From: an uncultured Verrucomicrobia subdivision 3 bacterium | Lineage (GTDB): Bacteria > Verrucomicrobiota > Verrucomicrobiia > Limisphaerales > UBA11358 | Assembly: GCA_903842235.1 (NCBI GenBank) | Contig: CAIMLG010000105.1 | Coordinates: 1,621 to 65,620, forward strand | Direction: 5' to 3' | DNA length: 64,000 bases | Part shown: one piece after another, positions 8,112-48,812 of the stretch | How positions within the stretch are numbered: position 1 is the first letter of the stretch | How the letters are laid out: every line of letters begins with the position of its first letter | Position numbers and translations under genes: made by a program | Notes under the pieces: model-generated | What the model saw: the letters and a program-made list of their open reading frames with translations, nothing else | What the model was told of the DNA's origin: nothing | Database searches by the model: none

Positions 8112-8120
8112 TGACAATCG

Positions 8121-8153
8121 CCGCCGGGACGACCATTGGGGCCGTCCCGGCGG
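8121..8153 (+). terminator. GC-rich hairpin after the giant gene (terminator/attenuator candidate, no U tract)
   Basis: CCGCCGGGACG (8121-8131) is the perfect reverse complement of CGTCCCGGCGG (8143-8153), with an 11-nt loop. It starts 10 nt after the stop at 8111. Confidence 0.35.
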
Positions 8154-8193
8154 TCCTTAACCAGCCATTAAAAATAGCCCCCTATTTAATCTC

Positions 8194-8982: not shown

Positions 8983-9020
8983 AGCTCGGGCCCATCCAGC
9001 AGCTCGACGCGTAATCTAGA

Positions 9021-14093: not shown

Positions 14094-14206
14094 TCTAAAC
14101 TCTGAAACGCCACAGTTGATCTGCAGTCTGAATGTTAGAATGCCAAACTGAAATCCAGCAACCGATTACAAACCACACCTGAATAATCATCAATCCCCAA
14201 TAGCGC

Positions 14207-14983
14207 ATGAAAATCCCCATTGTAACTAAGTTACTTCTATTCTCGGCGATCCTTCCCGTGATGGCTGCGGATCCCGTCCAACCCAATACCCTCACCGACA
14301 CGGAAAAAGCCGCCGGTTGGCGTTTGCTTTGGGATGGTAAAACCACGGAGGGCTGGCGCAGTCCGAAGAGCGACGCATTTCCCAAGAAGGGCTGGTCTAT
14401 CAAGGATGGCGTGCTGACGGTCCACGACAACAAAGGCGAGGAATCTGCCGGCGGAGGCGATATTATCACCAAGGAACGATTCTCGGAGTTTGAACTGCTG
14501 GTGGATTTCAAGCTCACCCCCGGCGCGAACAGCGGCATCAAGTATTTCGTCCAGCCGAACCTGGCCCCCATTGACAAGCAGACCGGCAAGCCCACCGGCG
14601 TGGGTTCGGCCATTGGTCTCGAATTTCAGCTTCTCGATGATGAGCGGCATCCCGACGCCAAGCTGGGGCGCGATGGGGACCGCACGATTTCCTCACTCTA
14701 TGACTTGATCACAGCCTCGCCGTCGAAGCAGCCCAACCCGATCGGCGAATGGAACACCGCGCATATTATTGTCCGCGGCAAACACGTCGAGCACTGGCTG
14801 AACGGGCAGAAAGTGGTGGAGTATGAGCGTGGCTCTCCCGCGTTCCGGGCGGTGGTGGCGCAGAGTAAATTCAAGAACATCCCGGACTTTGGCGAATGGG
14901 CGGACGGCCACCTCCTGTTGCAGGTGCACGGCAACACGGTTTCGTTCCGCAACCTCAAGATCCGGGTTCCCGCCGGCAAGTAA
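14207..14983 (+). CDS. DUF1080 (3-keto-disaccharide hydrolase-like) domain protein, secreted
   Basis: Signal peptide MKIPIVTKLLLFSAILPVMAADP. Family-typical motifs are GW..LWDGKT..GW, GGDIITKE.F.DFEL..DFK...ANSGI.Y and a C-terminal LQ.HG..V.FRN..I. Confidence 0.9.
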   Translation: MKIPIVTKLLLFSAILPVMAADPVQPNTLTDTEKAAGWRLLWDGKTTEGWRSPKSDAFPKKGWSIKDGVLTVHDNKGEESAGGGDIITKERFSEFELLVDFKLTPGANSGIKYFVQPNLAPIDKQTGKPTGVGSAIGLEFQLLDDERHPDAKLGRDGDRTISSLYDLITASPSKQPNPIGEWNTAHIIVRGKHVEHWLNGQKVVEYERGSPAFRAVVAQSKFKNIPDFGEWADGHLLLQVHGNTVSFRNLKIRVPAGK

Positions 14984-15007
14984 TCCACCCGCACCCAAAT
15001 TTTCAAA

Positions 15008-16453: not shown

Positions 16454-16779
16454 AAGGCGGGCGCTACATATGCCAACCAAGGCAGATTGCCGGCAGGCAA
16501 CCAATGGATGAGCCTTTTTGAGGCTTATGGAGGCAAGATGGTCCCGGCTTATGAAAAGCACCAAGCAAGACACCTCCAAAGAGCCGTCTTAGGTGGTTCG
16601 TTATACACTCCGTTACGGACCTTACGGCGAAGTGAACCAGCCATATCAATTGTTTGGACGCATTGGCGATTGGAGGCCGGAGGTTCGATTCCTTGGTGCC
16701 CGGTTTTGCAGGCTATTATCACTTCGCCTTGTTCAGACCGGTTTTACACAAGCCTCAACCTCAAATTCAGAATCAAGCC

Positions 16780-19700
16780 ATGAAGAGTATGCTGATCGGA
16801 ATTGCATGTTTTGTTTCTGGGACGTCGAAACGATGGCCTGTCTTTTCCTTTGTGTTGGTCTGTGTCTTATCGATAGGCATGGCCGGTCACGGCCAAGTGC
16901 TTCGATGGGACAATATGCCAGCCAAGGCTGGGGTTCAGGATGGCGGTGGCAATTGGAGTAATTCAAGCACCCTGACCAACTGGTGGAATGGGACAAGGAA
17001 TGTTGCCTGGATCACTGGTGCCTCAGCAGTAATTGGCTCGAATTTGACTTCCAGCGCAACGATTACGCTGGCCAATTCCATCGTCGCTGGAGGCATGATT
17101 TTCTCAAATAACTTTACCATCACCGCAGCCGGACAAAGTGTGCCTGCCTACACGGTTGCGGGTATCGCTCCCAACACAAACCTGACAGTAATGGGGAGTC
17201 CAGCTGAATTAGTCATGGCGGATAATTGTCCCAATCCACAATCTTATCCGGGGGCCTCTGGCCAAGTGACGATTAATGCCTCCCTCGTAGCCACTGGCGG
17301 AATAAGTGTGGTAACTAAGGCCTCGGGGTGGCAGTCGCAAATCGCCTTTAACAACCCGACGAATTTCATCAATGGCACGATGGAAGTCGGAACCCCGGGG
17401 GCTACGGATTACAACAGTGCTACCGCCTTGCAGGTGCAGTTCAATAACAGCGGTTTGGGCGCGGGAACTTTGACGGGTTGCACCAACCTGATCATCCACA
17501 CCAACTCCGGCGTGCTGCTGCGCGGAACCAGTGGCGGTTATACCCTCAACTGGCCGAAGAATTTCATCATTTCCGGCGATGGCATTCCGGCTTCGTTCTT
17601 CTGCTTCGGCGCCATCAACTTTTCCGGCAACAATGGCTGCACCTTTCCTGCGAACATCCAACTGGCCGGGGACAGCACGGTGATTTTGACCTGGGGCGTT
17701 AACAATGCGGCGGTCACCAACGCCGGCAACATTACCGGCGCGGGCCGCCTGCGCTTGAATCAATCCGCCAACCGGCCCACGACGGGTTCCCGGGTGGTTT
17801 TGAAAGGCACGAACACTTATGTGGGGGCTACGATTATAGACGGGGGCCTGGTGGTGCAGGCCGCGTCTGGCGCGAACAACCGATTGCCGGGCGGAACAGC
17901 GCTTCAATTGGGCAATTCAGGACTTTTCTATGCGGCGAACAGCAGCGGGACGCCGCAATCGAGCTACAATGGTTTTGGTGGGCTGATCTTGGGGGACCTG
18001 GGCGGGGCGAGTTCGCAAATGCTGAGCGGGCTGACCAGCGACACGACGGCCTTGGGGCAGCAAAGTTATGTGGCGGGTGGGAATGCGGCGGCGGTCTCCA
18101 CGCTAACGGTAAGCAACAACGGGGACAACATCTATATCGGCACGCTGGGCGGGACGGCCGCACCCGCGAGCAATCTAGCGTTGGTGAAGAGCGGCGCCGG
18201 CACGCTGAAGTTGCACGGCACGAACTTGTGCGCGGGCGGATATGCGATCAATGGCGGAACGGTGGTGTTTGGGGATGGTGTGGCGGACTATCCCTTGACC
18301 GGCCCTATTACCAATAATGCCACCGTCACTTTTAATGTCGCCAGCCGCCAAACCTATACCGGTGTGATCAGGGGCGGCGGCGCGCTGAATTTAAATGGCT
18401 TTGGCGTCTTGACCTTCGCAGGAACCAATGCCGGAACCGGCGCATTTAACATTCGATCCGGCACGCTGGCGGTTAATACCGATGCGCAGTTAAGCGGCGT
18501 GCCGATGGTGTTGTCACCGGGTGCGAGTTTGCAGGTGAATCGCACGGCAAACGAAAACAGTCTGGCGGTCGCTGCCTTGACGGCAACCAATGCGACCCTC
18601 AGTTTTAATCTGGCGGGATATGCCATCAACAGCTCCCCGTTGTTGGCGGTGCTGGGAGCTTTCGTTAATACGGGAAATTCCACAATTAACCTGCCCAATC
18701 CGGGTTCGATTGCGGCCGGAAGGGGATCGCTGATCACCTATGGGAGCTATCAGAGCAATGCTTTCAGTTCTTTCACGGTGAATGGCCTCCGGCCGGGCAT
18801 GGTTGCCCGCGTCGAGGACAACCCGGGGAATCATTCGCTGGACCTGGTGGTTTCCATCGTTGATCCCACGGTCACGGCCATCGTTCAGTCGGGCCATGTG
18901 TTAAACTTGTCATGGCCGGCCGCCTGCACGGGCTGGCAATTGCAGGGCCAGACCAATCCGTTAAGTCTCGGTTTGAGCAGCAATTGGTTCAATCTTTCCG
19001 GAACTGAGGCGACAAATAGCTATGCGATGGGAATTGATCCGACCACGCCGACGGAGTTTTTCCGCCTCATCTACCCGCCGATGCCGCCAATTCAAATGCC
19101 AATTTTCTCGAACTCGGCATTCGTCTTTTACCCCGACCGGATGGAGTGCTCGGATGTATACGCCGGGGTTTATCGCTCCACCAATGGCTTGACCATCACC
19201 CAGGATGGAAATCCAAGCTATGCTTGGACAACCCCGCAGATGAACCAGCTCTCTTTGCAAACACCCTACCCCATTCTGGATGGCGCGTTTGCTCTGGCGG
19301 TGGATGCGCTGTTCAAAGTGCGGGCGCCAGCCGGAACCGCCAGTGCCATGCTGGGGGGATACAGTCCCGGCAGCGTTTATTATGTTCCCTATTTCTATAT
19401 GACCCACGGCGCCGATATCCGCGAATACACCCGGGATTTCTCCCAGGAAATCCAATGGGGAGATATCGCCGTCATTGATCCGGTCACCACACGCGGAACA
19501 CTGATACGCCGGTGCGATATTACCAATAACATCATCCGCGAGGATGCCGTGGTCACCTCGGACAGCATTCATTTCATTTCCGCAGCATGGGAATATTTCA
19601 AAATCACCGGCGACACTAATTTGCTGACGACCTGTTGGCGTTGCATGTGGAACACCATGACGAACAAGGAAACGACCTATTTGGATGGCGACGATGGTCT

Positions 19701-20631
19701 TTGGTATGGCGGTCCGTGGAGTGATAATGTTTCGGGCTATGTGACAACCGGGGATTTCAACAATCGATTGACGCAGTTGAAGAGTCTGTATGGCAATCTT
19801 TTGGTGACGATGGCGTGGCGTGATCTCGGTCAAATTGCCGCCACGCTGGGGTTCGCCAATGAGGCCATCCTGTGCGGCCAGAAATCGTCCGCCAGCAAAG
19901 TTGCCATCAATGCCAAACTCTACCGACCGGAATTTGGCACCTATTGCTATTACATGAATGTGGTGTCCAACACCGCTTACAACTACCGTGAAGATATTTC
20001 AGCCGGATTGCTATATTTATCCGGCGTCGCCAGTGTACAAGCCTGTCTAAATTACCATTCAAATTTCGCAGCCACCCCTTACGGTTATCGCAATGTGGAC
20101 CCCATCATGCCCGCCGGTCAGACATCATATCATGGTGGAAATGTTTGGGAGGATGAAGCAGGCTTTCACGGATGGGCAATGGCGCTGCTTGGCCGACCTG
20201 AAGAACTGGAGCCCTTCATTTTCTGGCATGCGCGCGCGGGTCTACCGTTAAAAAAATGGCAGGAGGGAACCATCAATCCCTCCACGGGCCAATTTCACTC
20301 GAATTATACCTGGGTCAGCTGGGGGGCCACGGGCTATACGTGCTATTGGACGCGTGGAGTGTTTGGCATCACCTACAATCCCGATGGCATTCAATTTGCC
20401 CCCTGCGTGCCGAATTCATTCGGGAATAATTTTTATTCCGTGTTGAACCACTTCACGTATCGAAACTGCAACCTGCGAATAATTTTGATCGGCTGTGGCA
20501 CGGTGGTTCAGATCATTCTCGTTGATGGCGTGCCCGCCAGTAGCGTGCCCGCCACGCTGACCGGCAATCATGTGATTCAAATAAAAATGGCGAATTCAGG
20601 TTCGCCAAATATACCGCCTCCACAGGAGTAA
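16780..20631 (+). CDS. Beta-strand repeat exoprotein with an internal tail-like module and a C-terminal (alpha/alpha)6-barrel glycosidase-like domain
   Basis: The likely start is MKSMLIGIACF (16780); the ORF is open from 16654. It has PF12951-type repeats, then an SWP...GWQLQGQTNPL...EFFRLIYP module at ~18880-19080. A Pro-rich linker PPMPPIQMP follows, then a domain with DGDDGLWYGGPWSDN and SYHGGNVWEDEAGFHGWA, which resemble six-hairpin glycosidases. The exact GH family is not assignable by eye. Confidence 0.8.
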   Translation: MKSMLIGIACFVSGTSKRWPVFSFVLVCVLSIGMAGHGQVLRWDNMPAKAGVQDGGGNWSNSSTLTNWWNGTRNVAWITGASAVIGSNLTSSATITLANSIVAGGMIFSNNFTITAAGQSVPAYTVAGIAPNTNLTVMGSPAELVMADNCPNPQSYPGASGQVTINASLVATGGISVVTKASGWQSQIAFNNPTNFINGTMEVGTPGATDYNSATALQVQFNNSGLGAGTLTGCTNLIIHTNSGVLLRGTSGGYTLNWPKNFIISGDGIPASFFCFGAINFSGNNGCTFPANIQLAGDSTVILTWGVNNAAVTNAGNITGAGRLRLNQSANRPTTGSRVVLKGTNTYVGATIIDGGLVVQAASGANNRLPGGTALQLGNSGLFYAANSSGTPQSSYNGFGGLILGDLGGASSQMLSGLTSDTTALGQQSYVAGGNAAAVSTLTVSNNGDNIYIGTLGGTAAPASNLALVKSGAGTLKLHGTNLCAGGYAINGGTVVFGDGVADYPLTGPITNNATVTFNVASRQTYTGVIRGGGALNLNGFGVLTFAGTNAGTGAFNIRSGTLAVNTDAQLSGVPMVLSPGASLQVNRTANENSLAVAALTATNATLSFNLAGYAINSSPLLAVLGAFVNTGNSTINLPNPGSIAAGRGSLITYGSYQSNAFSSFTVNGLRPGMVARVEDNPGNHSLDLVVSIVDPTVTAIVQSGHVLNLSWPAACTGWQLQGQTNPLSLGLSSNWFNLSGTEATNSYAMGIDPTTPTEFFRLIYPPMPPIQMPIFSNSAFVFYPDRMECSDVYAGVYRSTNGLTITQDGNPSYAWTTPQMNQLSLQTPYPILDGAFALAVDALFKVRAPAGTASAMLGGYSPGSVYYVPYFYMTHGADIREYTRDFSQEIQWGDIAVIDPVTTRGTLIRRCDITNNIIREDAVVTSDSIHFISAAWEYFKITGDTNLLTTCWRCMWNTMTNKETTYLDGDDGLWYGGPWSDNVSGYVTTGDFNNRLTQLKSLYGNLLVTMAWRDLGQIAATLGFANEAILCGQKSSASKVAINAKLYRPEFGTYCYYMNVVSNTAYNYREDISAGLLYLSGVASVQACLNYHSNFAATPYGYRNVDPIMPAGQTSYHGGNVWEDEAGFHGWAMALLGRPEELEPFIFWHARAGLPLKKWQEGTINPSTGQFHSNYTWVSWGATGYTCYWTRGVFGITYNPDGIQFAPCVPNSFGNNFYSVLNHFTYRNCNLRIILIGCGTVVQIILVDGVPASSVPATLTGNHVIQIKMANSGSPNIPPPQE

Positions 20632-20751
20632 CATTTTCCAGTGAAAACTTTACCTGTCCATCTCCGAGGCTGTTTAAAGCGTGCAAGTGCGCGGGTGAAA
20701 ATCACGCGATCTCCCGCCCTTGGTGATCCGGCGGTTTGGCGCACTGCCAAG

Positions 20752-23700
20752 ATGCTTACTGCCATTCTGGGCTTGCTCGTTTTGCTCTGTGCTTCGAGTT
20801 TTGCCCAGCCATATCAACTGCGGGGTCACTTGGGCGCTCATGATCCTTCGACCGTAGTGAAGTGCAAAGACCGTTACTACCTGTTTGCCACCGGATCGGG
20901 GATTACGAGCCGGTCGTCCGCCGACAAAATATTTTGGTCGGCGGGGCCAAAGGTGTTTGCGAACGTGCCCGCTTGGACCACCAATGCCGTGCCCGGTTTC
21001 ACCGGAACCTTCTGGGCGCCGGACGTCCTCTACGTCAGCAATCGTTACTGCCTCTACTATTCCGTTTCCACGTTCGGCAGCCAGATTTCTGCGATCGGAC
21101 TGGTGACCAATCCGACGTTGGACCCGACGGATCCGAATTATCTGTGGACCGATCAAGGCCCCGTGATCACTTCGACGAACGGATTGGCCTACAACACCAT
21201 TGACCCCTGTCTGTCATGGGACGCCTCCGGCAAGCTGTGGCTCTGCTTCGGTTCCTACTGGAATGGGATTTATATAACGCAACTGGATCCGGCCACCGGC
21301 CTCCGCATCACACCGAACTCAACGACCTTCCGCCTCGCGGACAGCAGTTCGATTGAAGCGTCGTATATTTTTCGGCAGGGCAGTTACTACTATCTCTTTG
21401 TCAACTGGGGCTCCTGTTGCGACGGCGTGGATAGCACCTACAATATCCGTGTCGGTCGCAGCCTTTCCATCACCGGTCCTTACCTGGACAAGAATGGCGT
21501 GGATATGGTCAACGGCGGCGGCACCTTGTTCATGCGTGCGTCCGGCAAATATTCCGGGCCGGGCCACGTTGGCATCTTGTCGGATGGCGGAACGCTATTT
21601 CTCACGCATCATTACTACGACGCCAATTCCTGGGATACGGGATATAACGCTTACGGAACGCCGCGCTTCGCCATGTTGCCGCTTTCGTGGACTACGGACG
21701 GCTGGCCGGTCTATGATAACAGTTGGTCGGCCGTCTATAATTTTCAATCCGACGCGCGGGAGGAGAACGGCCAATTCTCCGGCCTGCTGGTGAATGGCGC
21801 CTCGGTCAAGCTCGACCCCACATACGGCCACGCTCTCGATCTCAACGGGACCAACCAATACGCCTGGCTGCCTCCTGGTGTTGCCTATGCGCAAACATTC
21901 GCGGCAGTGGTGAAATGGCGCGGCGGCAGTCAGTGGCAACGCATCTTTGATTTCGGCACGGACACGTCCAAGACTGTGATGCTCACTCCAGCCGCCAGCG
22001 GCAATGTCCTGCGCCTCGACATCAACCCGGGCGGCAATTTGCAGACGCTGCAATGGACCCAACCACTGCCGATGAACGTTTGGACCCACGTTGCAGTGAC
22101 GCTGGATGGCTCGAAGGGCATTCTCTTCGTCAATGGAGCCGCGGTGGCCACGAACAACAGCATGACCACCCTTCCTTTAAACGTCACGTCGCAGACCAAT
22201 CATCTTGGGCGCAGCAAATTCGCGGTGGACCCTTACTTCAATGGCCAATACGCGAGTTTTCGCGCGTATAGTCGGGCGCTGACGGCGGCCGAAATTGTGG
22301 CGCCAGTGCCCGTCATTGCGTCGCCAGCGGATGGCTCTGCCTGTTGGCCGGGCGGCACGATTCGTTTTCAAGGCCGCGCTACTGATTTCATGAACCTGCC
22401 TTTGGGTGCCGGCAATCTGACCTGGCAGATTCAATACATCAACAACGGGGCGACCAACATAGTGCTGAGCCCGGTCACGGGTTTGAATGAAGGCGTTTAT
22501 ACCGTGCCAGCCAACGGAACGAATGGTTTGTATCGCATCTTCCTGATGGCGACGGACAATCTCGGTCGCAAAGCAACCAATTCAGTGAGCGCCTATGCCT
22601 CGGCGACCGTCGGCTCGAATGCGTGGTCATCCTTTTATCCGCTGACCAGCAATGCCCTGGATGCCAGCAACAACTTCAACGGCACGCTCGTGAACGGAGC
22701 TTCCTTTGTGAACGACCCGACGCGTGGAAATGTTCTAAACCTTACACCAGCGCCCAAGCAATACGTCAAACTGGCGACCGGTGCGGGTTCGGCGCAGACA
22801 GTTTCCGGCTGGGTCAAGTGGAACGGTGGCGCCAACTGGCAACGCATTTTTGATCTGAGCAAGAACAACAATTGTTTTTACTATCTCACCCCTTGCAACT
22901 CCTCGACCCAGCTGCAATGCTCGATCACGCCGGACTATGCCACTTACAAGCGGACGATTGAGATGCAGGGCGCACTGCCCACCAACCGGTGGGTGCAGGT
23001 GGCCGTGACGATGAACGGGCGTGAGGGAATTCTCTGCCTGAATGGCGATGCGGTCGGCGTCAATAACAGCGTCAATCTATTGCCGTCCGACATCGCCGGA
23101 ACCAACTGCGTATTGGGGAAGAGTCAGTTTTCTGCCGATCCCTATTTCGATGGGCAAATCAGCGCGGTACGTTTGAATTCAAAGGTGCTCTCCCGCGCCG
23201 AGCTCGTGGCCCCGCAACCGCTCATCCTTCAGCCCACGAATACAACCAAGTTTGCCGGCGGAGTTCCGTTGGTTTTCATCGGATCCGCTAAAGACTATTC
23301 GGGCGCGATTTTGTCGCCGGGCGCATTCTCGTGGAATAGCCAACTGTTTTCGAACGGACTGGCCTATGCCGCCTTCGGTCCGTGGACGGGCATAACCAAC
23401 GGGGCTTATCTCGTTCCGACTAATGCCGCAACCGTCACCAACATTTTCTACCGCATCAATCTCACCGTAACCGACACCAACGACAATCAGCAGTCCGTTT
23501 CGGCAGATGTGCAACCACGAACCAGCGTGCTGAGTTTTACCACCGTGCCGGCCGGCTTAAACATCTCACTCGATGGCCAAAGCCTGACGACTTCGACCTC
23601 CGTTGTCGCCGTCGCTGGAATGAGCCGAACGATGGGAGTGCCGTCGCCACAATTCAAAGCCGGCACGAACTTCCCGTTTGTGATGTGGTCTGACGGCGGT

Positions 23701-23973
23701 GCGCAATCGCATAACCTCACGGTTCCAGACACCAACACCAGCTACACGGCGAGTTTCGTGCAGCCGACCATGGATATCAGATCAAGCGATGGCGGGCTAG
23801 ACCTATCATGGCCGGGTTGGGCTGCGCCCATGACGCTTGAGTTCACGACGGACCTGATGCCGCCAGTCCTCTGGTCCGGGTTGGCCGTGCCAATTATTCC
23901 AACCAACGGCATGCTTGGCGTTCACTTCTCGATGACCAACACGATCCAGTTTTACCGGTTGAAGCTCCCATGA
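20752..23973 (+). CDS. GH43 endo-arabinanase-like enzyme with two LamG/concanavalin-like domains, Ig-like segments and an F-Y-R-L tail
   Basis: Signal peptide MLTAILGLLVLLCASSFAQP; the ORF is open from GTG 20641. GH43 motifs are HDPS, FWAPDV, YYSVSTFGSQ.SAIG, NTIDPC...GSYWNGI and IEASY. There are two copies of LVNGAS...W.RIFD(F/L) (Laminin_G_3-like). It ends IQFYRLKLP. Confidence 0.9.
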   Translation: MLTAILGLLVLLCASSFAQPYQLRGHLGAHDPSTVVKCKDRYYLFATGSGITSRSSADKIFWSAGPKVFANVPAWTTNAVPGFTGTFWAPDVLYVSNRYCLYYSVSTFGSQISAIGLVTNPTLDPTDPNYLWTDQGPVITSTNGLAYNTIDPCLSWDASGKLWLCFGSYWNGIYITQLDPATGLRITPNSTTFRLADSSSIEASYIFRQGSYYYLFVNWGSCCDGVDSTYNIRVGRSLSITGPYLDKNGVDMVNGGGTLFMRASGKYSGPGHVGILSDGGTLFLTHHYYDANSWDTGYNAYGTPRFAMLPLSWTTDGWPVYDNSWSAVYNFQSDAREENGQFSGLLVNGASVKLDPTYGHALDLNGTNQYAWLPPGVAYAQTFAAVVKWRGGSQWQRIFDFGTDTSKTVMLTPAASGNVLRLDINPGGNLQTLQWTQPLPMNVWTHVAVTLDGSKGILFVNGAAVATNNSMTTLPLNVTSQTNHLGRSKFAVDPYFNGQYASFRAYSRALTAAEIVAPVPVIASPADGSACWPGGTIRFQGRATDFMNLPLGAGNLTWQIQYINNGATNIVLSPVTGLNEGVYTVPANGTNGLYRIFLMATDNLGRKATNSVSAYASATVGSNAWSSFYPLTSNALDASNNFNGTLVNGASFVNDPTRGNVLNLTPAPKQYVKLATGAGSAQTVSGWVKWNGGANWQRIFDLSKNNNCFYYLTPCNSSTQLQCSITPDYATYKRTIEMQGALPTNRWVQVAVTMNGREGILCLNGDAVGVNNSVNLLPSDIAGTNCVLGKSQFSADPYFDGQISAVRLNSKVLSRAELVAPQPLILQPTNTTKFAGGVPLVFIGSAKDYSGAILSPGAFSWNSQLFSNGLAYAAFGPWTGITNGAYLVPTNAATVTNIFYRINLTVTDTNDNQQSVSADVQPRTSVLSFTTVPAGLNISLDGQSLTTSTSVVAVAGMSRTMGVPSPQFKAGTNFPFVMWSDGGAQSHNLTVPDTNTSYTASFVQPTMDIRSSDGGLDLSWPGWAAPMTLEFTTDLMPPVLWSGLAVPIIPTNGMLGVHFSMTNTIQFYRLKLP

Positions 23974-24015
23974 TTAACCACGAACAAAGATTTTCGCCAA
24001 GAAGCAGACCAGGTC

Positions 24016-27000
24016 ATGAATAGTCGAACTGTAAAATTTCCCATGTTGTTCCGATTGGTCGGATGGATTTGTTTGGTGACGTCGGGTCTGCCGATGATTT
24101 GTTTCAATGCAGGTGCTTACACGGCGGCGGATGCGCAAACGATGGTGGATTCCTTCAACAACGCTTTTTATTTCACCACCAGCGGTCGCGGCTATTTCCG
24201 TGACTCAACCGATGGCGGCACAACGTGGTTCTGGGGGCGGGCAAACCAGATGGAAATGCTCGTTGACCTTTATGAGCAAACCACCAACACCGCCTACCTG
24301 ACCCAGTTCTCCAGTCTCTACAACGGTTTCGCTTACGACTACGGCACGAGCTGGACCTGGAACGCTTACAACGACGACATCATGTGGATGGTGATCGCCT
24401 GTTCGCGCGCGTATCAAAAGACCGGCAACAACACCTATCGCTCGGTGGCGAAAAGCAATTTCGACGCGTGCTATACGCGGGCATGGTCTACGAATGGCGG
24501 TGGCGGGTTGTATTGGAAATACCCGGACAATTCGTCGAAGAACGCCTGCGTTAACGGCCCGGGTGCGATTGCAGCCTACCTGATCTATCAAAACTACGGG
24601 GACACCAACTATCTTGCCAAGGCCGAAAGTTTATACCAGTGGGAGCGGGCAAAATTATTCAACAGCGGCAGCGGTTCGATCGCCGACTACTACGGCAGCG
24701 ATAACGCCGCCCATGGTGGGGCAACCTCATACAACCAGGGGACGTTCATCGGTGCGGCAAATTTCCTCGGCTACACCAATGACGCCATCCTCGCGGCGAA
24801 TTACACCAGAAACAGCATGGGCACCGGTGGCCAGTTGCCAAATTACGACGAGAACAGCGACCTGGGCAATTTCAACGCCATCTTCGTCCGGTGGATGGTG
24901 AGGTTCATGAAGGATCGTGGGCTGCAAAGGGATTATCAGTTGTGGCTCCAGCAGAACGCCAATGCCGCGTGGAATGTGCGGCGCCCATCGGACAATATCT
25001 CCTGGTCGAAATGGTGGGATCAAACGCCCGATGACACGCGCTACTCGGTCGGCTGCTGGGGTTCCGTAATGGTGATGAACCTGGTGCCGCCGACCCAAAA
25101 TCCCGGTGGCAGCGTGGTGACTTTGAACACCAGTGATGTGGCCGGGAGCAGCAGTTTCGAAAGCGCGTTGAACTGGTCGGACGGAGCGGCTCCGTCGTCG
25201 GCCAAGAATTACGTGGTGAACATCGCCCGCACATTGCGAACGCCGGCAGACGGATCCCATCACACTTTTGCCGGAAGTTCGTTGACGCTGTCAAACGGCG
25301 CTGTGCTCGCGTTCAAGAACACCTCCGGTGGACGCTATGTTTCCATCGGCACGGATCTGTTTCTCGATGGCGGCGAAGTCCACAACTGGTCGGGCAACAG
25401 CGCCAGCCTGGGGGGCAAAGTCACACTGAAAGCGGGCGGGGGGAAAATTGATCCGCAGGGGAATTCATTTTCGTTTCCCGCGTTAATTGGCGGACCCGGT
25501 GCGTTGCGGATCGGTGCCACGGCGGTTTCTCCTTTGAACGGCACCGTCAATCTGAACGGCGTAAACACCTACACGGGCGGCACGGTCATTGAAGCGCCGC
25601 ACACGGTGCAAATCGACAACTCTGCTTGTCTGGGTAGCTCAACCGGTTCACTCGCTTTCAGCAACTCGGTTGGGCGCGGATATGGCACAATGAACCTGAA
25701 TGGCATTGACCTGACAATTGGAAAACTCAGCGGAGCAGGTGGCACCATTATGAACAGCAAGAGCGGGACAACGAACACGCTGACGATCGGCAATGGCGAT
25801 GCGACCGGCGGCATCTATCAGGGCATTATCACCGATGGCGGTGGTATGCTAGGTGTGACCAAGGCTGGCACGGGTTCGATTGCGCTTTCGGGGGCGAACA
25901 CATTCAGCGGCGGCATGACCATGGACGCGGGCCAGTTGAACATCAATTACGGCGGTTCCAGCAGCGCCAACTCGGCCATCGGCATCGGTGTTTTGACTAT
26001 TTTAGCGAATACCACGCTGGACAACACCAGTGGCACGGAGGTGACGCTGCGGCCGAATAATGCCCAAGTGTGGAATGGCAATTTCACCTATGCCGGAACT
26101 GCGAACAGTCTGAATCTGGGCACGGGCGCGGTGAGCCTGGCCGCCACCCGCACGGTGACGGTGAGCGGTAATAGATTGACGGCAGGGGGTGTGATCAGCG
26201 GCGCCGGTGGACTCGCTAAAATGGGCCCCGGCACTTTGGCGCTTACCGGGGCGAATATGTTCACGGGAACGGTGGACCTTCAGGCTGGCACACTGGCAAT
26301 CGGTAATGATTCAGCCCTCGGAACCGGGCCATTGAATTTTAACGGTGGCACGCTTGGAGCGACCATTCAGTCCATTGACGGCGCGGCGCGCATGATAACG
26401 AATGCCTTCAATTTCGGCGGCAGCGCGGGCGCCAACGCAATCTTCGGCGGCACGGGGAATCTCAAATTCACGGCCACCCCGAATGCCAATGGCACCGCCA
26501 AGACCTTGACAGTGAACAATCCGCGGACGGAGTTCAGCGGGGTCTTGGGTGGAGCCAGCGCGCGCACGGTGGCCGGCACGGGCATCCTCATTTTTAGCGG
26601 GGCAAACACCTATAGTCTGGGCACGACGATCAATCCGGGCGCCACGCTGCAACTGGGCAACGGCGGCACAAGCGGCTCGCTTTCCACCAGCGGCACGATT
26701 GATGACGAGGGCACGTTGATCTTCAACCGCAGCGATTCAATTGTCCAAGGCACCCACTTTAGCAGCGCCCCCATTATCGGCGGCGGTTCGGTGATCCAAG
26801 CCGGTTCCGGCATCGTCACCCTCAACGCAGCAAACACCTACTCCGGAAGCACTATGGTCGGCAACGGGGTGCTAGGCGGCACCGGTTCAATCCCCGGAAT
26901 GCTCAATGTGCAACCCGGGGGAACCTTGGCTCCGGGCATGCCTTCCTGGGGGATTTTGCCGGCTGTGATGGGGACATTGACCGCCGGCAATACGACCATT

Positions 27001-27495
27001 AACGGCACGATGCGGATGAAGATTGACCGCTCGGTGACGCCCACCAGCGACAAGTTGTCTGCCCCTAGCGTTGTTGCCAATGCGGGATCTGCTTTAGTGG
27101 TTACCAACCTCGGGCCGACCAATTTTTCGGCTGGCGACCGATTCACGCTTTTCAGCGTGCCCATCAGCGGCGCGTTTAATTCGGTCAATCTTCCGCCATT
27201 GCCTGATGCGAGTTTGGTCTGGGCCAACAACCTTGCCGTGGACGGCTCGATTGCAGTGATTCCGGCGGTCGCCATCACGCCAACCAATCTGGTGGCGCAA
27301 TTTTCGGTGAACACGCTGACCCTCTCGTGGCCGGCTGACCATACCGGGTGGCGGTTGCAGACGCAGACGAATCCGTTGGTCACCGGGTTGAACTCGAACT
27401 GGTTTGATGTCGCAGGCGCAATAAGCACGAATCAAATGATCCTCCCGTTTTCGCCCGATGCGGGGGGCGTCTTCTTCCGTTTGATCTATCCGTGA
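24016..27495 (+). CDS. GH76-like alpha-1,6-mannanase fused to head module, beta-strand repeats, neck module and F-F-R-L tail
   Basis: N-terminal domain with WFWGRANQMEMLVDLYE, NDDIMWMVIACSRAY, GGGLYWKY and KNACVNGPGAIAAYL, which are GH76-like. Downstream are PF12951 repeats and modules paralogous to 4230-4740 and 7490-8108. Confidence 0.88.
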   Translation: MNSRTVKFPMLFRLVGWICLVTSGLPMICFNAGAYTAADAQTMVDSFNNAFYFTTSGRGYFRDSTDGGTTWFWGRANQMEMLVDLYEQTTNTAYLTQFSSLYNGFAYDYGTSWTWNAYNDDIMWMVIACSRAYQKTGNNTYRSVAKSNFDACYTRAWSTNGGGGLYWKYPDNSSKNACVNGPGAIAAYLIYQNYGDTNYLAKAESLYQWERAKLFNSGSGSIADYYGSDNAAHGGATSYNQGTFIGAANFLGYTNDAILAANYTRNSMGTGGQLPNYDENSDLGNFNAIFVRWMVRFMKDRGLQRDYQLWLQQNANAAWNVRRPSDNISWSKWWDQTPDDTRYSVGCWGSVMVMNLVPPTQNPGGSVVTLNTSDVAGSSSFESALNWSDGAAPSSAKNYVVNIARTLRTPADGSHHTFAGSSLTLSNGAVLAFKNTSGGRYVSIGTDLFLDGGEVHNWSGNSASLGGKVTLKAGGGKIDPQGNSFSFPALIGGPGALRIGATAVSPLNGTVNLNGVNTYTGGTVIEAPHTVQIDNSACLGSSTGSLAFSNSVGRGYGTMNLNGIDLTIGKLSGAGGTIMNSKSGTTNTLTIGNGDATGGIYQGIITDGGGMLGVTKAGTGSIALSGANTFSGGMTMDAGQLNINYGGSSSANSAIGIGVLTILANTTLDNTSGTEVTLRPNNAQVWNGNFTYAGTANSLNLGTGAVSLAATRTVTVSGNRLTAGGVISGAGGLAKMGPGTLALTGANMFTGTVDLQAGTLAIGNDSALGTGPLNFNGGTLGATIQSIDGAARMITNAFNFGGSAGANAIFGGTGNLKFTATPNANGTAKTLTVNNPRTEFSGVLGGASARTVAGTGILIFSGANTYSLGTTINPGATLQLGNGGTSGSLSTSGTIDDEGTLIFNRSDSIVQGTHFSSAPIIGGGSVIQAGSGIVTLNAANTYSGSTMVGNGVLGGTGSIPGMLNVQPGGTLAPGMPSWGILPAVMGTLTAGNTTINGTMRMKIDRSVTPTSDKLSAPSVVANAGSALVVTNLGPTNFSAGDRFTLFSVPISGAFNSVNLPPLPDASLVWANNLAVDGSIAVIPAVAITPTNLVAQFSVNTLTLSWPADHTGWRLQTQTNPLVTGLNSNWFDVAGAISTNQMILPFSPDAGGVFFRLIYP

Positions 27496-27856
27496 GCAGT
27501 CCCTTGAGGCTTCTCTTCCAGTCGGCATCGTGCGAGAGGTCTTTCAAATTAAAAACATCCGTGGGGCAGGGCACGGTTCCGGCTGTCGTTGCCCCCAAGG
27601 AAACACCAACACCGCACGTTTTCTCCGCTTGAAGATACCCAACCCATAGCCGGCGATGCGTCACCCGGCGGGGTGAGGCAAAAGCACCCGGCGGCGGCTC
27701 CCGGGACAGTTTGAAGAACTATTTCCGGGCTGGTGCGCGCTTCGGGCGGCAGCATGGCAGCGGATTCCGGTTAGCGCTTCGGGGATTTGTTTGATTCAAC
27801 CAGAGTTGTTGGTTAAGTTGAAGGAGAATAAATTCCATCCATTTTACCGGCCGGCA

Positions 27857-28441
27857 ATGCCCAATTTTGAAGCCCAACATGATGTGACGCGCGTGCTGCA
27901 GTCGCAGTCCCCGGAAGGCGGCGTTTCCGAGGAGTTATTGCCTTTGGTTTACAAGGAATTGCGGGTATTGGCGGCCTCGCGAATGGCGCGGGAAATGGGC
28001 GGTCAAACCCTGCAGCCCACCGCCTTGGTGCACGAGGCTTGGCTGCGGCTCCAATCCAATTCCGCCCCCGTCTGGCACAACCGGGCGCATTTTTTTGGTG
28101 CGGCGTCCGAGGCCATGCGGCGAATTCTCATTGAACGGGCGCGGCGTAAATTACGGCTGAAGCGGGGAAATCGGGCTGAGCACGTCAGCATTGATAATGT
28201 GGACGTGGCCCAAACCCTCCCCGACGACCGCATTTTGCTGATTGACGAGGCGTTGACGCGTTTGGGGGCGGCCGATCCCGAACTGGCGCAGATTGTGACG
28301 CTGAAATTTTTCGGCGGCTTAACCAACGTGGAAGTGGCTGAGGCTCTGGGGGTCACCGAGCGCACCATTTACAATAAATGGACCTTTGCCAAGGCTTGGT
28401 TGTTAAAGAGCATTAACGAAGAATGGAATGGGGAGGCATAA
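27857..28441 (+). CDS. ECF-type RNA polymerase sigma factor (TIGR02999 / kinase-linked ECF type)
   Basis: DVTRVLQS...LLPLVYKELRVLAASRMAREMGGQTLQPTALVHEAWLRL, and a region-4 HTH (LTNVEVAEALGVTERTIYNKW). ATG 27857 is preferred over the TTG at 27791. Confidence 0.9.
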   Translation: MPNFEAQHDVTRVLQSQSPEGGVSEELLPLVYKELRVLAASRMAREMGGQTLQPTALVHEAWLRLQSNSAPVWHNRAHFFGAASEAMRRILIERARRKLRLKRGNRAEHVSIDNVDVAQTLPDDRILLIDEALTRLGAADPELAQIVTLKFFGGLTNVEVAEALGVTERTIYNKWTFAKAWLLKSINEEWNGEA

Positions 28442-28508
28442 CCCCGATGCCTTTCCGGTTTTCCCCCCTGCCAGCGCATTATTGTGTGAAAAACTGCTGT
28501 CTCAACCC

Positions 28509-30749
28509 ATGAGTGCGGATACTGACAAAGAACAATTGCTATTTGCCGCCGCGCTGCCGATTACGGACCCCGGTGAACGGGAAGCCTTTCTCAAGCGAGC
28601 CAGCGCGGCTGACCCCCATGTGTGTTCCCGGGTGGTTGAAATGCTGGCGCATCATGATCAAAGTGACCGGTTTTTTTCTGAATGCATCACCAACCTGGCC
28701 ATTGATGAGGTGGATGTTTTGGAAGTGGCGGAGCTGGTGAGCGCAAAATCGGTGGTTGGAGAAATGGCCGGCATACGGATCGGTCGATATCGGTTGCTGC
28801 GGCAATTGGGTGAAGGCGGGTGCGGGGTGGTTTATTTGGCGGAACAGGAAGTGCCGGTCCGCCGCCGCGTGGCCTTCAAGCTCATCAAGCTGGGCATGGA
28901 TACCCAGAATGTCATTGCGCGGTTTGATACTGAACGCCAGGCCCTGGCGATGATGGATCATCCCAATATTGCGAAAGTCCTGGATGGGGGTGCCACGGAA
29001 TCCGGTCGTCCATATTTCGTGCTGGAGCTGGTTCAAGGAGTGAAAATCACGACCTACTGCGACGAAGAAGACCTGACTGCGCCCCAGCGGCTGGAGCTGT
29101 TAATTCAAGTCTGTCAGGCCATCCAGCATGCACACCAAAAGGGGGTGATTCATCGCGACATCAAACCGTCCAATATTTTGGTGACGATGCTCGATGGCCG
29201 GCCCGTTCCCAAGGTGATTGATTTCGGGATCGCCAAGGCCATCGAAGGCCGGCTCATGGACAATCCCGATCTTACAATGGCAGGACAGGTCGTTGGCACG
29301 CCCGCTTACATGAGCCCGGAACAGGCGGAGCTGAGCAGCCTGGACGTTGATACACGCAGTGACATCTATTCACTTGGCGTCCTGCTTTATGAATTGCTTA
29401 CCGGTCGCACGCCCTTTGACCAAAAGGAACTTGTCCAATCCGGTTTGGATGAAATGCGGCGCACGCTGCGTGACAAGGAACCCCAGCGTCCTTCCACGAT
29501 GCTGACCGGTCTCACAATTACCGACCTGGCCGCCACCGCCAAACATCGCCAGATGGAGCCGCCCAAACTGATCAAGTCATTGAAGGGTGATTTGGATTGG
29601 ATCGTCATGAAAGCGTTGGAGAAGGAGCGGCAGCGGCGTTATGAGACCGCGAATGCCCTGGCCATGGATGTCCGGCGCTACCTCAACAATGAACCGGTTG
29701 TCGCGCGGCCCCCCAGCCCGTTCTACCGGCTCCAGAAATCAATTCAGCGCAACAAGGTTATTTATGCCAGTGGTCTGGCGGTGGCCCTCACGCTGATTGT
29801 GGGATTGGAAGTTTCCACCAGTTTTTTCTTCAAGGAACGGCAGGCGCGCATGGAATCCGAACAGGCACACGCCAACGAAATGTTGTTACAGAAAATGGTG
29901 AAGGCGCGTGAGACCGTCACCGAGGCGGGGGTTCTGCTGAGTCATGGTGCCTCGGCGGAGGCGGATGCCTTGGTGAAGGCCATTCCGGTGGAATTGCTTT
30001 CGCCCTCCCGGGAGTCTAGTGACGTCTTTCGCCAACTGGGCATGTGGAATCTGTTACAGCGGAAATGGAAACAAGCCGCCAATCGTTACATTGTTCTGTT
30101 GCAGGTCAATCAGGTGGACAAAAACGACCGGACGGATCAGGCCACCCATGATTTGTTGTTTGCCGCGCCGATCTTGATTGAAGCGGGTGACATCGCCGAC
30201 TATGAACGGATCCGGCTGGCGGCCTTGGCCCGATTGAACACCACCACCAGCGTGGGCGCCGCCGAACAGTTGATCAAGACCAGTTTATTGCTGCCGGCGG
30301 ATGACGCCATTCTCAAACAATTGGAACCTCTGGAGGGCGTTGTAAAAAAGGCGCTGGCCAGCCGTGATCCGGCCGTGAATGACCGCAGCCAGCTTGCCGC
30401 GTGGCGGAGCTTTGCCCTGTCTCTGCTGGAATATCGCCGGGGTGATTTCAACGCCGCCGTCACCGAGCTGGGTGTCTGTTCCAGTTATCCCGGTCAGTCA
30501 CCGGCCTGCGTGGCCGGCACGCATCTGTTGTTGAGCATGGCTCTCCGCCAGCTTGGAAAAGCTGAGCAAGCCGACGAGGAATTGGCGGAGGGCCGGGCGA
30601 TGGTTCAAAATCGGTTCCAAGAGAAGCTCGAATCCGGCAATGATGTAACCGGCAGGATTGAAGGGTGGATCGTCACGCCTATTCTACTGCACGAGGCCGA
30701 GTCACTGGCCAACACGTCCACCTGGCTGCGAACTGGCGACACGAAATGA
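28509..30749 (+). CDS. Membrane Ser/Thr protein kinase with extracytoplasmic TPR-like sensor domain
   Basis: Hanks kinase motifs are present: LGEGGCGVVYLA, VAFKLIK, HRDIKPSNILV, DFGIAK and GTPAYMSPEQ. There is one TM segment (VIYASGLAVALTLIVGL) and a helical-repeat C-terminal half. ATG 28509 is preferred over 28428. Confidence 0.92.
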   Translation: MSADTDKEQLLFAAALPITDPGEREAFLKRASAADPHVCSRVVEMLAHHDQSDRFFSECITNLAIDEVDVLEVAELVSAKSVVGEMAGIRIGRYRLLRQLGEGGCGVVYLAEQEVPVRRRVAFKLIKLGMDTQNVIARFDTERQALAMMDHPNIAKVLDGGATESGRPYFVLELVQGVKITTYCDEEDLTAPQRLELLIQVCQAIQHAHQKGVIHRDIKPSNILVTMLDGRPVPKVIDFGIAKAIEGRLMDNPDLTMAGQVVGTPAYMSPEQAELSSLDVDTRSDIYSLGVLLYELLTGRTPFDQKELVQSGLDEMRRTLRDKEPQRPSTMLTGLTITDLAATAKHRQMEPPKLIKSLKGDLDWIVMKALEKERQRRYETANALAMDVRRYLNNEPVVARPPSPFYRLQKSIQRNKVIYASGLAVALTLIVGLEVSTSFFFKERQARMESEQAHANEMLLQKMVKARETVTEAGVLLSHGASAEADALVKAIPVELLSPSRESSDVFRQLGMWNLLQRKWKQAANRYIVLLQVNQVDKNDRTDQATHDLLFAAPILIEAGDIADYERIRLAALARLNTTTSVGAAEQLIKTSLLLPADDAILKQLEPLEGVVKKALASRDPAVNDRSQLAAWRSFALSLLEYRRGDFNAAVTELGVCSSYPGQSPACVAGTHLLLSMALRQLGKAEQADEELAEGRAMVQNRFQEKLESGNDVTGRIEGWIVTPILLHEAESLANTSTWLRTGDTK

Positions 30750-33019
30750 GCAAGCCAAAAAGTTCTTTGATGCCTTTCCTGAACTTGATTCGGAGAAACC
30801 TGAATTACTTGTGCTTCGTGGTCATTATTGCGCAGTTGGTTGCATGCAGCCCAGCCAGCGGGACAGACATACTCGAGGCCGCCACGGCCGCGGCGTCGGG
30901 CACGGATTGGAATCAAGGCAGCCAGTGGAATGGAGGAAATCCGCCGACCAGCGGAATCAACTATGTCCTCTATACCAACACTTCAAATAATTCGACATTA
31001 TCCAGCTACTACGGTGTCAGTTTCGGAACCGGTTATATCCGGACGCCGGCCAACAATGGCGCGAGTGGGTTTCTTGGGGATAATCTTATCCTCCCCCCTG
31101 GCACTGAAATATTGTTGAAACAAACATCGGGCGGATCCGCCAGTGCCAACATCATTTTCACCAATTACAATAATATCAGCCCCGTCGGGCTGTATCCTCT
31201 CGTTCGTTTGGGGCCCAGCACCTCGGGCGGAACGGCGACTTTGAATGGGACCATCACCCTCCGGGTGGATTCGTATGTGGCCAATGATGCTGGCGCGACC
31301 ATGACACTCAATATTGCCTCGCTGGTGGCGGGGGGGGGCAATTTGACCCTGGTATCAGCCAATGCCGGGACTTTTTCTACGACCCGGACCAATTTGGTGA
31401 CGGGTGACTGGAGCGGATTCACCGGCACGTTGAACATTGGAAACTCGACGGTGGCCGGGGTGGTGGAACTGAACAACTCAGCGTGGAATGTGAACATGGC
31501 GCTCACTATGCCCAGGGCGAACGGGGTGTTGGTATTGGACAAGGGGATCAGCGTGAAAGGCTTTTCTATCGCCAACAACACGGTGTCGGCGGGAACTTAT
31601 ACGCCGGGGCAATTGACGGCCTTGGGCTTTGGTGGAAGCTTTTCAGGCACGGGCTCGCTGACGGTTGGTTTTACCGCGCCTCCGGGTTTGGCCGCAACGC
31701 CCGGCAATGCCCAGGTGGCGTTGACCTGGCGACCGGTGTATGGCGCGGCCGGCTACAACGTAAAGCGTTCGACGGTCAGCGGCGCGGAAACCACCATCAT
31801 TAATGTGGCCAATCCGAATTATACGGATACGGGACTGGCCAACGGCACGACTTATTACTACCAGGTATCGGCGACGAATATTGCGGGCACCAGTGCTGAT
31901 TCGGCCGAAGCCAACGCCACGCCCAACAGCACGGTGTCTTCTCCAAAAATAATCAAGGTTTATCTGCAAGCCGGGCAATCAAACTCGGACGGTCGGGCAT
32001 TGACCAATGGGCTGCCGTCTTATTTGCTCAACCCACAAAATGACGTGCCGTTTTATTATTACCTGACGGGTGGTGCCGCCAATGGCGATGGCACGCTGGG
32101 CACCCTTTCGCCGTTGCACCCCGGCGCTTCGGCGCTCGGCGGCGGCACCACTTTCGGCCCGGAGTTGACCTTTGGGCGGACGCTTGCCGATTACTTTGCC
32201 CTGACCAACGGCGCTTCGACCAATACCGTTATGGTGGCAATCATAAAATATGCCCACGGCGGCACTTCGTTGGTTTCGGGTTGGGCCGCCAATGGGAATA
32301 GTTCCACCAACGGTGACGGTCCTGATTACCTCATCTTTCAAAAGGTTGTCAGCCATGGGTTGTCCCGTTTGGCTGCGGCGTATCCCAATACCAGTATTGA
32401 ACTAGATGGCATGATCTGGGTGCAGGGGGAAAGTGACATTGACGCCGGATCCAGTGCGTCTGCCGCCTACGGTATGAATCTGGAAAAGTTCATCAATGAT
32501 GTGCGCTCAACGTATGCCGCAAATCAACCCTTCGGCACGAACCTGCCGTTTTTTCTTTCCCGAATTTCCGCCAATCAAACCGTCTATTCCTCGCCGCCGG
32601 ATGCCGATTATCCGAACTATCTTTTATTGCGCGCGGGTCAACAATTCGCAACTACAAATCTGCCTAATGTCTTTATGATCAATACGGACGCATCCCAATT
32701 TTCCACAGCGACACCCTGGTCGAGCCCCGGGCTACATTTTGACACTCAGGGACAGCAATCAATAGGCGTGGCCTTTGGGCAATCCGTGATCAAGGGCCTG
32801 CCGGCGCCACGATTGCAACTCCCGCAGCGGGCTGATGGTGGCTGGCTTGTGGGTTTTTCAGGGGAATCAGGAACGTGGCATTCAATTGAGCGTTCATCTG
32901 GTATTAACGGAACATGGATTTTGCTCACAAATATTCTGGTTGGGGCGTCTTGGTTCACAAATTACGTTGACCCAAGTCCGCTATTTCCTTATGGCTTCTA
33001 TCGCGTAAGCCGACCATAG
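30746..33019 (+). CDS. Exoprotein: head-like module, fibronectin type III domain, SASA-type (sialate O-acetylesterase-like) carbohydrate esterase, F-Y-R-V tail
   Basis: The ATG at 30746 overlaps the kinase stop (ATGA). It has a lipoprotein-like N-terminus (LVACS) and an FN3 segment (AQVALTWRPVYGAAGYNVKRS...TYYYQVSATN). The esterase motifs are QAGQSNSDGRA, YAHGGTSL and WVQGESD. It ends GFYRVSRP. Confidence 0.88.
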   Translation: MSKPKSSLMPFLNLIRRNLNYLCFVVIIAQLVACSPASGTDILEAATAAASGTDWNQGSQWNGGNPPTSGINYVLYTNTSNNSTLSSYYGVSFGTGYIRTPANNGASGFLGDNLILPPGTEILLKQTSGGSASANIIFTNYNNISPVGLYPLVRLGPSTSGGTATLNGTITLRVDSYVANDAGATMTLNIASLVAGGGNLTLVSANAGTFSTTRTNLVTGDWSGFTGTLNIGNSTVAGVVELNNSAWNVNMALTMPRANGVLVLDKGISVKGFSIANNTVSAGTYTPGQLTALGFGGSFSGTGSLTVGFTAPPGLAATPGNAQVALTWRPVYGAAGYNVKRSTVSGAETTIINVANPNYTDTGLANGTTYYYQVSATNIAGTSADSAEANATPNSTVSSPKIIKVYLQAGQSNSDGRALTNGLPSYLLNPQNDVPFYYYLTGGAANGDGTLGTLSPLHPGASALGGGTTFGPELTFGRTLADYFALTNGASTNTVMVAIIKYAHGGTSLVSGWAANGNSSTNGDGPDYLIFQKVVSHGLSRLAAAYPNTSIELDGMIWVQGESDIDAGSSASAAYGMNLEKFINDVRSTYAANQPFGTNLPFFLSRISANQTVYSSPPDADYPNYLLLRAGQQFATTNLPNVFMINTDASQFSTATPWSSPGLHFDTQGQQSIGVAFGQSVIKGLPAPRLQLPQRADGGWLVGFSGESGTWHSIERSSGINGTWILLTNILVGASWFTNYVDPSPLFPYGFYRVSRP

Positions 33020-33034
33020 GTTGGCCATAGGTTG
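33014..33034. repeat. 11-bp tandem duplication CCATAGGTTGG/CCATAGGTTGT at the locus/island junction
   Basis: Read directly from the sequence. It spans the stop codon of the esterase gene, and GC content drops immediately downstream. Confidence 0.85.
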
Positions 33035-45710: not shown

Positions 45711-45725
45711 CGAGGGGCGGTTATT

Positions 45726-48812
<3,087 letters not shown>

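Follow-up and report, generated by a model that had tools for sequence, protein, structure and literature searches.

Organisation of the sigma factor and kinase genes

The DNA examined here (the window) is a 64,000-nt stretch from an uncultured Verrucomicrobia subdivision 3 bacterium (contig CAIMLG010000105.1 of assembly GCA_903842235.1). It carries a gene for an extracytoplasmic function (ECF) sigma factor and, directly downstream on the same strand, a gene for a receptor Ser/Thr kinase of the Hanks type; the features of the locus are collected in Table 1. An original prediction, made from the letters of the window, had read the two genes as a pair without an anti-sigma factor that would regulate the glycan locus around them. 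The setting is indeed as it had been described, with genes for GH115, GH43, GH76+PATR and PATR giants upstream on the same strand and a gene for a SASA carbohydrate esterase downstream.

Table 1. Features of the locus, in window coordinates, with the evidence for each.
Feature	Position	Strand	Evidence
Candidate ECF-type promoter heading the PATR/CAZyme array, TTTTCAGGTTT-N10-CGGCGCAATA, 115 nt before ATG 1429	1283..1313	+	Conserved position
Co-directional exoprotein/CAZyme gene array, putative target	1429..27495	+	Pfam matches
Putative sigma-70-like promoter of the sigma gene, TTGATT-N17-TAAGTT	27791..27819	+	Conservation of both blocks in orthologues
ECF sigma factor gene, TIGR02999/PF07638, ECF43-like (ATG to stop, 194 aa)	27857..28441	+	Profile matches, homologue alignment
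Thr55 codon, sigma2.2 motif QPTA; predicted site of phosphorylation, corresponding to T63 of EcfP and T51 of EcfK	28019..28021	+	Alignment and published motif logic (PMC8999054, PMC13147305)
Predicted cognate ECF promoter between the sigma and kinase genes, CTTTCCGGTTT-N10-CAGCGCATTA	28451..28481	+	Best motif match in the window, orthologue conservation
PknS-like receptor Ser/Thr kinase gene (from ATG, 746 aa)	28509..30749	+	Pfam, PDB sequence search, fold search, models
Kinase N-terminal extension, residues 1-85	28509-28763	+	Three-helix, conserved in the family
Pkinase domain, residues 94-384	28788-29660	+	E 1e-43
Single transmembrane helix, residues 417-441	29757-29831	+	Hydrophobic helix
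TPR-like periplasmic domain, residues 455-746	29871-30746	+	Predicted fold
FN3 + SASA carbohydrate esterase exoprotein gene	30746..33019	+	Pfam; ATGA overlap with the kinase stop

The sigma factor matches PF07638 (E 1.1e-47, residues 8-186) and TIGR02999 (189 bits for a cut-off of 126, residues 9-186), which confirms the TIGR02999 type that had been proposed for it. It has the minimal ECF layout of sigma2 and sigma4, region 4 being matched as well, and homologue alignments favour the start at ATG 27857 over a longer open reading frame (ORF) from TTG 27791. When solved structures were searched with this protein the only match was SigK (E 7e-4), and no informative relative was found.

The sigma2.2 segment reads LQPTALVHEA, and QPTA stands where ordinary ECF sigmas have the acidic DAED. 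Replacement of this acidic motif by an uncharged one containing a threonine is the signature of the ECF43 group (PMC8999054, PMC13147305). In order to assess its conservation, related sigmas were aligned, at first 30 and later all 45 of them, and Thr55 was found invariant in 45 of 45 (QPTA in 28, QATA in 15 and QATV in 2). An uncharged sigma2.2 motif with Thr, an adjacent Hanks kinase and the lack of an anti-sigma gene together mark the sigma as ECF43-like, a placement made by motif signature and linkage rather than by the ECF Hub models and which supports the ECF43-type pairing put forward in the original prediction.

No plausible ORF was found in the 362-nt region upstream of the sigma gene or in the spacer downstream of it, and the N-terminus of the kinase matched no anti-sigma family even at E<=10, hence no anti-sigma-like ORF or domain was detected on either side of the pair or between its genes. 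The lack of an anti-sigma gene behind the sigma gene and the kinase start 67 nt downstream had both been noted from the letters and both hold, the distance being exactly 67 nt from the stop codon.

The kinase and its predicted periplasmic domain

Homologue alignments favour ATG 28509 as the kinase start over a longer ORF from ATG 28428. The Hanks core is intact, with GEGGCG, VAFK (K124), HRDIKPSN (D217, N222), DFG (D238) and SPE all invariant in 29 homologues. By sequence the closest solved kinase is 9EED (199 bits, PknB giving 156 bits), which is PknS of Xanthomonas citri (PMC13147305), and the same structure is the top Foldseek match (E 3e-19, TMt 0.90, 40% identity) of an AlphaFold model of the kinase (pLDDT 82). 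The ectodomain is all-helical and about 300-305 aa long. Modelled on its own (pLDDT 91.6, pTM 0.88), it most resembles TPR domains, with those of KLC1 and LGN ranking first (E about 4e-4, TM about 0.46). The model is a confident one, but no Pfam TPR model reaches its threshold, and the label TPR-like hence applies to the predicted fold only. One transmembrane segment and a helical, TPR-like outer domain had thus been correctly foreseen. The architecture is not an unusual one, as the characterised kinase PknS of X. citri consists of an 83-aa N-terminal extension, a kinase domain, a transmembrane helix and periplasmic TPRs (PMC13147305). Within the N-terminal extension, residue 32 (28602-28604) is Ser in the window kinase, where at least 90% of 29 homologues have Cys in the motif FLDxACxGD.

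The association of the two genes was then followed in other genomes, where ORFs of the related loci were called by a simple longest-ORF rule and where the loci are kin rather than independent samples. Among kinases with the same ectodomain and with enough upstream DNA, 47 of 50 have a sigma gene directly upstream, so that the pairing is not due to chance. Such kinases occur, among the matches listed, in Limisphaerales, Opitutales (including the cultured Pelagicoccus mobilis), Luteolibacter and Pontiellaceae. In this order the kinase family as a whole is very large: a single genome can have as many as 27 matches, and the matches listed for the species-representative collection comprise more than 599 loci. 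Paralogous kinases keep the N-terminal extension, the kinase domain and the transmembrane helix but end in other, much longer C-terminal domains of 900-1600 aa (loci L103, L098, L076 and others). They frequently stand two or three in tandem, and only 16 of 53 have a sigma gene next to them. Several kinase sensors may converge on one sigma.

A bipartite promoter-like motif linked to the pair

Intergenic DNA downstream of these kinases contains a recurring bipartite element, TTGTCGGGTTT-N10-nGGCGCATGT, whose two blocks have a fixed spacing of 16-17 nt; some 12 nt beyond the -10-like block comes a third one, GAAsCC, which is conserved as well. A first matrix was trained on 14 downstream-of-kinase sites only, and never on the spacers between sigma and kinase genes. 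This matrix nevertheless detects the motif in 15 of the 29 spacers of at least 40 nt, for 0.15 expected from random segments of the same loci, and in none of the 29 on the reverse strand or in the equal-length stretches upstream of the sigma gene (0/29 in each case). After refinement, the motif is found in the spacer of 17 of 45 loci and within 450 nt after the kinase in 25 of 45.

In the window, the site in the sigma-kinase spacer is the best of the whole stretch with three models (scores of 19.3, 21.0 and 24.7). The highest of these scores was obtained with a matrix built from five orthologous sites in other genomes, with no window site among them, and exceeds the maximum of every one of 30 shuffled windows. 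Furthermore, the exact orthologue-type pattern, TTCCGNTTTT-N12-CGCAT, occurs once in the window, and only the two motif blocks are conserved in a four-way alignment of orthologous spacers. Since the ATG of the esterase gene overlaps the stop codon of the kinase gene as ATGA (30746-30749), kinase and SASA esterase are probably co-transcribed from this predicted promoter.

A weaker site precedes the PATR/CAZyme array. The orthologous PATR array heads of three other genomes carry the motif as well, at L164:561 (31.6), L165:381 (29.1) and L163:3648(-) (23.1), the first two being training sites of the orthologue matrix and the third not, and only the two motif blocks are conserved in an alignment of three of the array heads. 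It is this conserved position alone that argues for the site at 1283, since its score lies within the range of shuffled sequences. At the orthologous locus L164 a second orthologue-type motif (L164:472 (-), 22.6) points in the opposite direction to L164:561 (+), which suggests two divergent promoters; the window showed no equivalent. A further motif match in the window, at 48895(-) before a class II ribonucleotide reductase gene, was set aside as chance.

The orthologue-type matrix was also run on the whole genome, the assembly of which comprises 4.3 Mb in 354 contigs and is 88.65% complete. No other comparable intergenic site was found in it, which points to a local regulon. Only two sigma-kinase pairs are present in this assembly, and the second one, on contig C140 (1558 bp), has no motif at the standard spacing.

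Covariation of the -35-like block with the sigma factor

The -35-like block exists in three variants, which partition exactly with the recognition helix of sigma4.2. Sigmas with ...VERQW/VERHW...AKAWLF go with GTCGGGTTT, i.e. G(T/G)CGGGTTT, those with VDRHWVC/VNRHWLC go with GGCGGAAA or G(A/T)CGCAATT, and those with (Y/Q/C)NKW, the window sigma included, go with TT(C/G)(C/G)GnTTTT. Loci with two motif sites have both of the same variant, and the -10-like CGCAT and the sigma2.4 region are both constant throughout. As far as alignments can tell, such covariation is what direct recognition of the motif by the cognate sigma would predict. The cultured Pelagicoccus mobilis KCTC 13126 (L071, NZ_JAENIL010000029.1, about 54-76 kb) shows a same-class pair, then the motif as TTGGCGGGTTT-N10-GGGCGCATTG and then a gene for an MFS_2 sugar transporter.

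The region upstream of the sigma gene has a different character. The blocks TTGAyT-N17-TAnGTT are kept in four orthologous loci and their flanks diverge, suggesting a sigma-70-like promoter. A stricter scan of 27400-34200, with a consensus of the E. coli type, did not flag the 27791 site, and the search of the same region for sigma-70 promoters and terminators gave nothing useful for the sigma-kinase pair. Autoregulation of the sigma gene was considered as well; a bipartite word search in 45 upstream regions returned nothing above shuffles and only an enrichment of TTGAyT, and the idea was dropped because these regions share no bipartite motif.

Genes associated with the pair in related genomes

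We next examined the neighbours of the related pairs. Families that recur immediately downstream of 43 non-redundant same-class pairs are Laminin_G_3 (7), TonB-dependent receptor Plug (4), N_methyl (4), PATR (3) and sugar-binding AraC regulators (3); GH43 is found twice and GH92, GH115, SASA, GDSL and MFS_2 once each. On the upstream side are PATR (5), GH43, GH32, GH_cc, GH3 and arabinofuranosidase genes, and also RRF, UvrD, AcrB and TROVE genes. As a control, 40 random ORFs of the window genome were taken, among which only two TPR families occur twice and no recurrent family of glycan type appears; as this control covers the top 25 of 76 families, single CAZyme hits could hide in it and the enrichment downstream of the pairs is only qualitative. 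At ten related loci a gene lies directly behind a strong motif. These genes encode TonB-dependent receptors (two), an MFS_2 sugar transporter, a sugar-binding AraC regulator, a GH43+Laminin_G_3 protein, a Laminin_G_3 exoprotein with PATR repeats and another with Ig-like domains, an N_methyl/DUF1559 protein and two products with no Pfam match. The association of the pair family with nutrient and glycan acquisition genes is therefore real but not exclusive. The expectation that such pairs are tied to CAZyme neighbours elsewhere stands as far as their surroundings are rich in genes for glycan uptake and degradation, but not for the pairs that adjoin unrelated housekeeping genes.

Proposed mechanism

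Taken together, we consider it fairly probable that the two genes form an ECF43-type signalling unit, in which a kinase-activated sigma would act at motif promoters before the kinase-esterase unit and probably at the head of the array. The sigma would be made constitutively from its own housekeeping-type, sigma-70-like promoter and would be inactive as made, because its sigma2.2 region is devoid of the acidic residues that bind the beta' clamp of RNA polymerase. The PknS-like kinase would receive a periplasmic cue through its TPR-like domain and, by homology with EcfP and EcfK, would phosphorylate Thr55. The phosphorylated sigma could then bind core polymerase and recognise TTTCCGGTTTT-N12-CGCAT; for the paralogous pairs the motif reads TGTCGGGTTT or TGGCGGAAA, then GCGCAT. 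Transcription starting before the kinase and the coupled SASA esterase gene would feed back positively on the sensor and leave the sigma outside the loop, and the weaker second copy would probably drive the upstream PATR/CAZyme array from its head. Local control of the glycan locus by the pair is plausible on these sequence grounds.

Extended to the phylum, the proposal is more tentative, and we put it forward as something that may well fail. Expanded pairs of ECF43-like sigmas and PknS-like kinases in Verrucomicrobiota would be locus-specific regulators of polysaccharide-utilisation and exoprotein loci, with a paralogue-specific -35 set by three or four residues of sigma4.2 and with feedback on the kinase rather than on the sigma. 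Little is known of how the very large CAZyme and exoprotein repertoires of Verrucomicrobiota are regulated, and a literature search turned up no publication that connects kinase-activated ECF sigmas with CAZyme loci in Verrucomicrobia. The locus and its relatives offer a concrete, testable promoter, P. mobilis KCTC 13126 is a cultured organism and a possible experimental model, and a specificity code between sigma4.2 and the -35 block, if there is one, could be useful for orthogonal sigma/promoter sets.

Several observations weigh against the mechanism proposed for the window pair. The site at 1283, second-best in the window, scores 16.9, a value that 12 of the 30 shuffled windows reach. One shared ECF-type motif had been envisaged upstream of the genes at 1429, 9021, 16780, 20752, 24016 and 30746; the site at 28451, for the kinase-SASA esterase unit, and the weaker conserved-position copy before 1429 were found, but the window scans gave no motif before the internal genes at 9021, 16780, 20752 and 24016. 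Control of the whole 26-kb array would hence need very long transcripts. The covarying classes are clades, and so the covariation amounts to about three independent events. ECF59-62 and ECF217, which are kinase-linked too, remain alternatives to the ECF43 assignment. On the side of the receptor, the Pfam TPR models are below the cut-off on the ectodomain (E 0.007), and none is significant on the N-terminal extension either. TPR folds usually bind proteins or peptides, and the modelled fold would favour a ligand of this kind over a free glycan.

These points give some room to another explanation, unlikely but the most serious of those considered, according to which the pair is a genuine ECF43-type unit that controls only itself and the esterase, or distant genes, on envelope stress or another cue, the CAZyme setting being due to the high density of CAZyme genes in the lineage. 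A strong motif that occurs only once in the window, and a 1283 site not significant by score, would both fit it, as would the RRF, UvrD, AcrB and TROVE neighbours of related pairs and the fact that known ECF43 members govern type VI secretion or polymyxin resistance, not glycan use. However, the position of the array-head motif is conserved in four genomes, the motif-led genes elsewhere serve mostly glycan uptake or degradation, and the recurrence of Laminin_G_3, TonB Plug, N_methyl and PATR among the 43 downstream neighbours has no equivalent in the top 25 families of the 40 random ORFs.

It is also conceivable, with a clearly lower probability, that the bipartite motif is the site of another regulator or sigma, or a conserved element of a 5' leader, and not the promoter of the cognate sigma. 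The third block after the -10-like block would suit a leader element, no experimental promoter for these sigmas was found in the literature consulted, and the general matrix is too unspecific to define a genome-wide regulon, most of its 20 hits scoring at least 19 being inside ORFs. On the other hand, the fixed spacing of the blocks, the strict strand bias and a -35 block that covaries with the sigma4.2 helix, next to a -10 block and a sigma2.4 region that are both constant, argue against this reading.

Finally, that the kinase does not act on the sigma, their linkage serving shared expression only and the sigma being controlled otherwise, is very improbable: several substrates are common for Hanks kinases (PMC13147305) and most paralogous kinases with other C-terminal domains have no adjacent sigma, but same-class kinases are almost always paired with one, Thr55, which corresponds to the residue phosphorylated in EcfP and EcfK, is kept in all relatives aligned, and the sigma has no acidic motif such as would be needed for activity when unmodified.

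Neighbouring genes and other observations

The array upstream of the pair, in which intergenic gaps are mostly short, comprises genes for a PATR giant, an N_methyl protein, GH115, a 3-keto-disaccharide hydrolase, a GFO oxidoreductase, a PATR protein, GH43+Laminin_G_3 and GH76+PATR. Downstream of the pair the same-strand neighbours encode the SASA esterase and a pectate-lyase-like protein. Two ORFs at the array head, 1429-2196 and 2007-8111 (+), appear to be parts of a single PATR giant gene (1429-8111), broken by one frameshift near a G-run at ~2190: one frame ends in ...NDANRG*, and the other reads on as VTLGAGNGTLDV. The shift may be genuine or may have arisen in the assembly of the metagenome-assembled genome. 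A T-loop-like sequence, GGTTCGATTCC (~16670-16700), in the 326 nt that precede the gene at 16780 was discarded as ARAGORN found no tRNA or tmRNA and Rfam gave no match.

The 1.1 kb after the esterase gene (33020-34133) contain no convincing gene; the tail of an ORF at 33610-33918 is IS91-like in appearance, yet it has no Pfam match. Further away, 45726-48812 (-) encodes a class II (B12-dependent) ribonucleotide reductase, and the ORF 45690-48848 (+), which has no family match, is probably its shadow. This stretch shows an unusually strong GC and AT skew.

Comparison with known systems

Activation of an ECF sigma by phosphorylation of a threonine is already established in Vibrio and Xanthomonas. 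Indeed, in EcfP (STTA) and EcfK (QATE) the neighbouring kinase phosphorylates the Thr of the uncharged motif, which restores the negative charge for binding to beta' (PMC8999054, PMC8103513, PMC13147305). The closest system is EcfK/PknS of X. citri (ECF43; PDB 9EED). Both comprise an ECF sigma without an anti-sigma and an adjoining receptor Hanks kinase, the layout of the kinase is the same (an N-terminal extension of ~83-85 aa, kinase domain, one transmembrane helix and a periplasmic TPR-type domain), the conserved Thr stands in an uncharged sigma2.2 motif in both sigmas (QATE in EcfK, QPTA in the window), and PknS is the best solved match to the window kinase by sequence and by fold. The likeness of the two N-terminal extensions is one of length and position, the phmmer alignment of the window kinase to 9EED beginning only at residue 80. 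The systems differ in that EcfK runs type VI secretion against amoebae, whereas the neighbours and predicted targets in the window are exoproteins and CAZymes, in that the linker phosphosite T106 of EcfK has no conserved counterpart in the family of the window sigma, and in the Pfam TPR models, which are not significant in the window ectodomain.

EcfP/PknT of Vibrio parahaemolyticus (ECF43; work of Iyer et al. 2020, cited here after PMC8999054 and PMC8103513) resembles the window pair in its charge switch, STTA corresponding to QPTA with the Thr at the Glu position as phospho-acceptor. By those accounts its signal is polymyxin and its regulon polymyxin resistance, in a different phylum, and the passages on PknT in PMC8999054 and PMC8103513 ascribe no TPR ectodomain to it.

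With the regulators of polysaccharide utilisation loci (PULs) of Bacteroidota, composed of an ECF sigma, a FecR-like anti-sigma and a SusC-like transducer, the window pair would share a dedicated alternative sigma in a glycan-degradation locus and a promoter before genes of the locus. In contrast to these, the window genes scanned include neither an anti-sigma nor a TonB-dependent receptor of the transducer type, and the window sigma would be activated by phosphorylation instead of by release from an anti-sigma, which makes the analogy one of logic only. If our proposal for Verrucomicrobiota is correct, such pairs would play the part of the PUL regulators of Bacteroidota, with phosphorylation as the switch. 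Judged by its conserved residues and architecture, the pair is a member of the known kind of kinase-activated ECF sigmas and has a receptor kinase of the PknS type.

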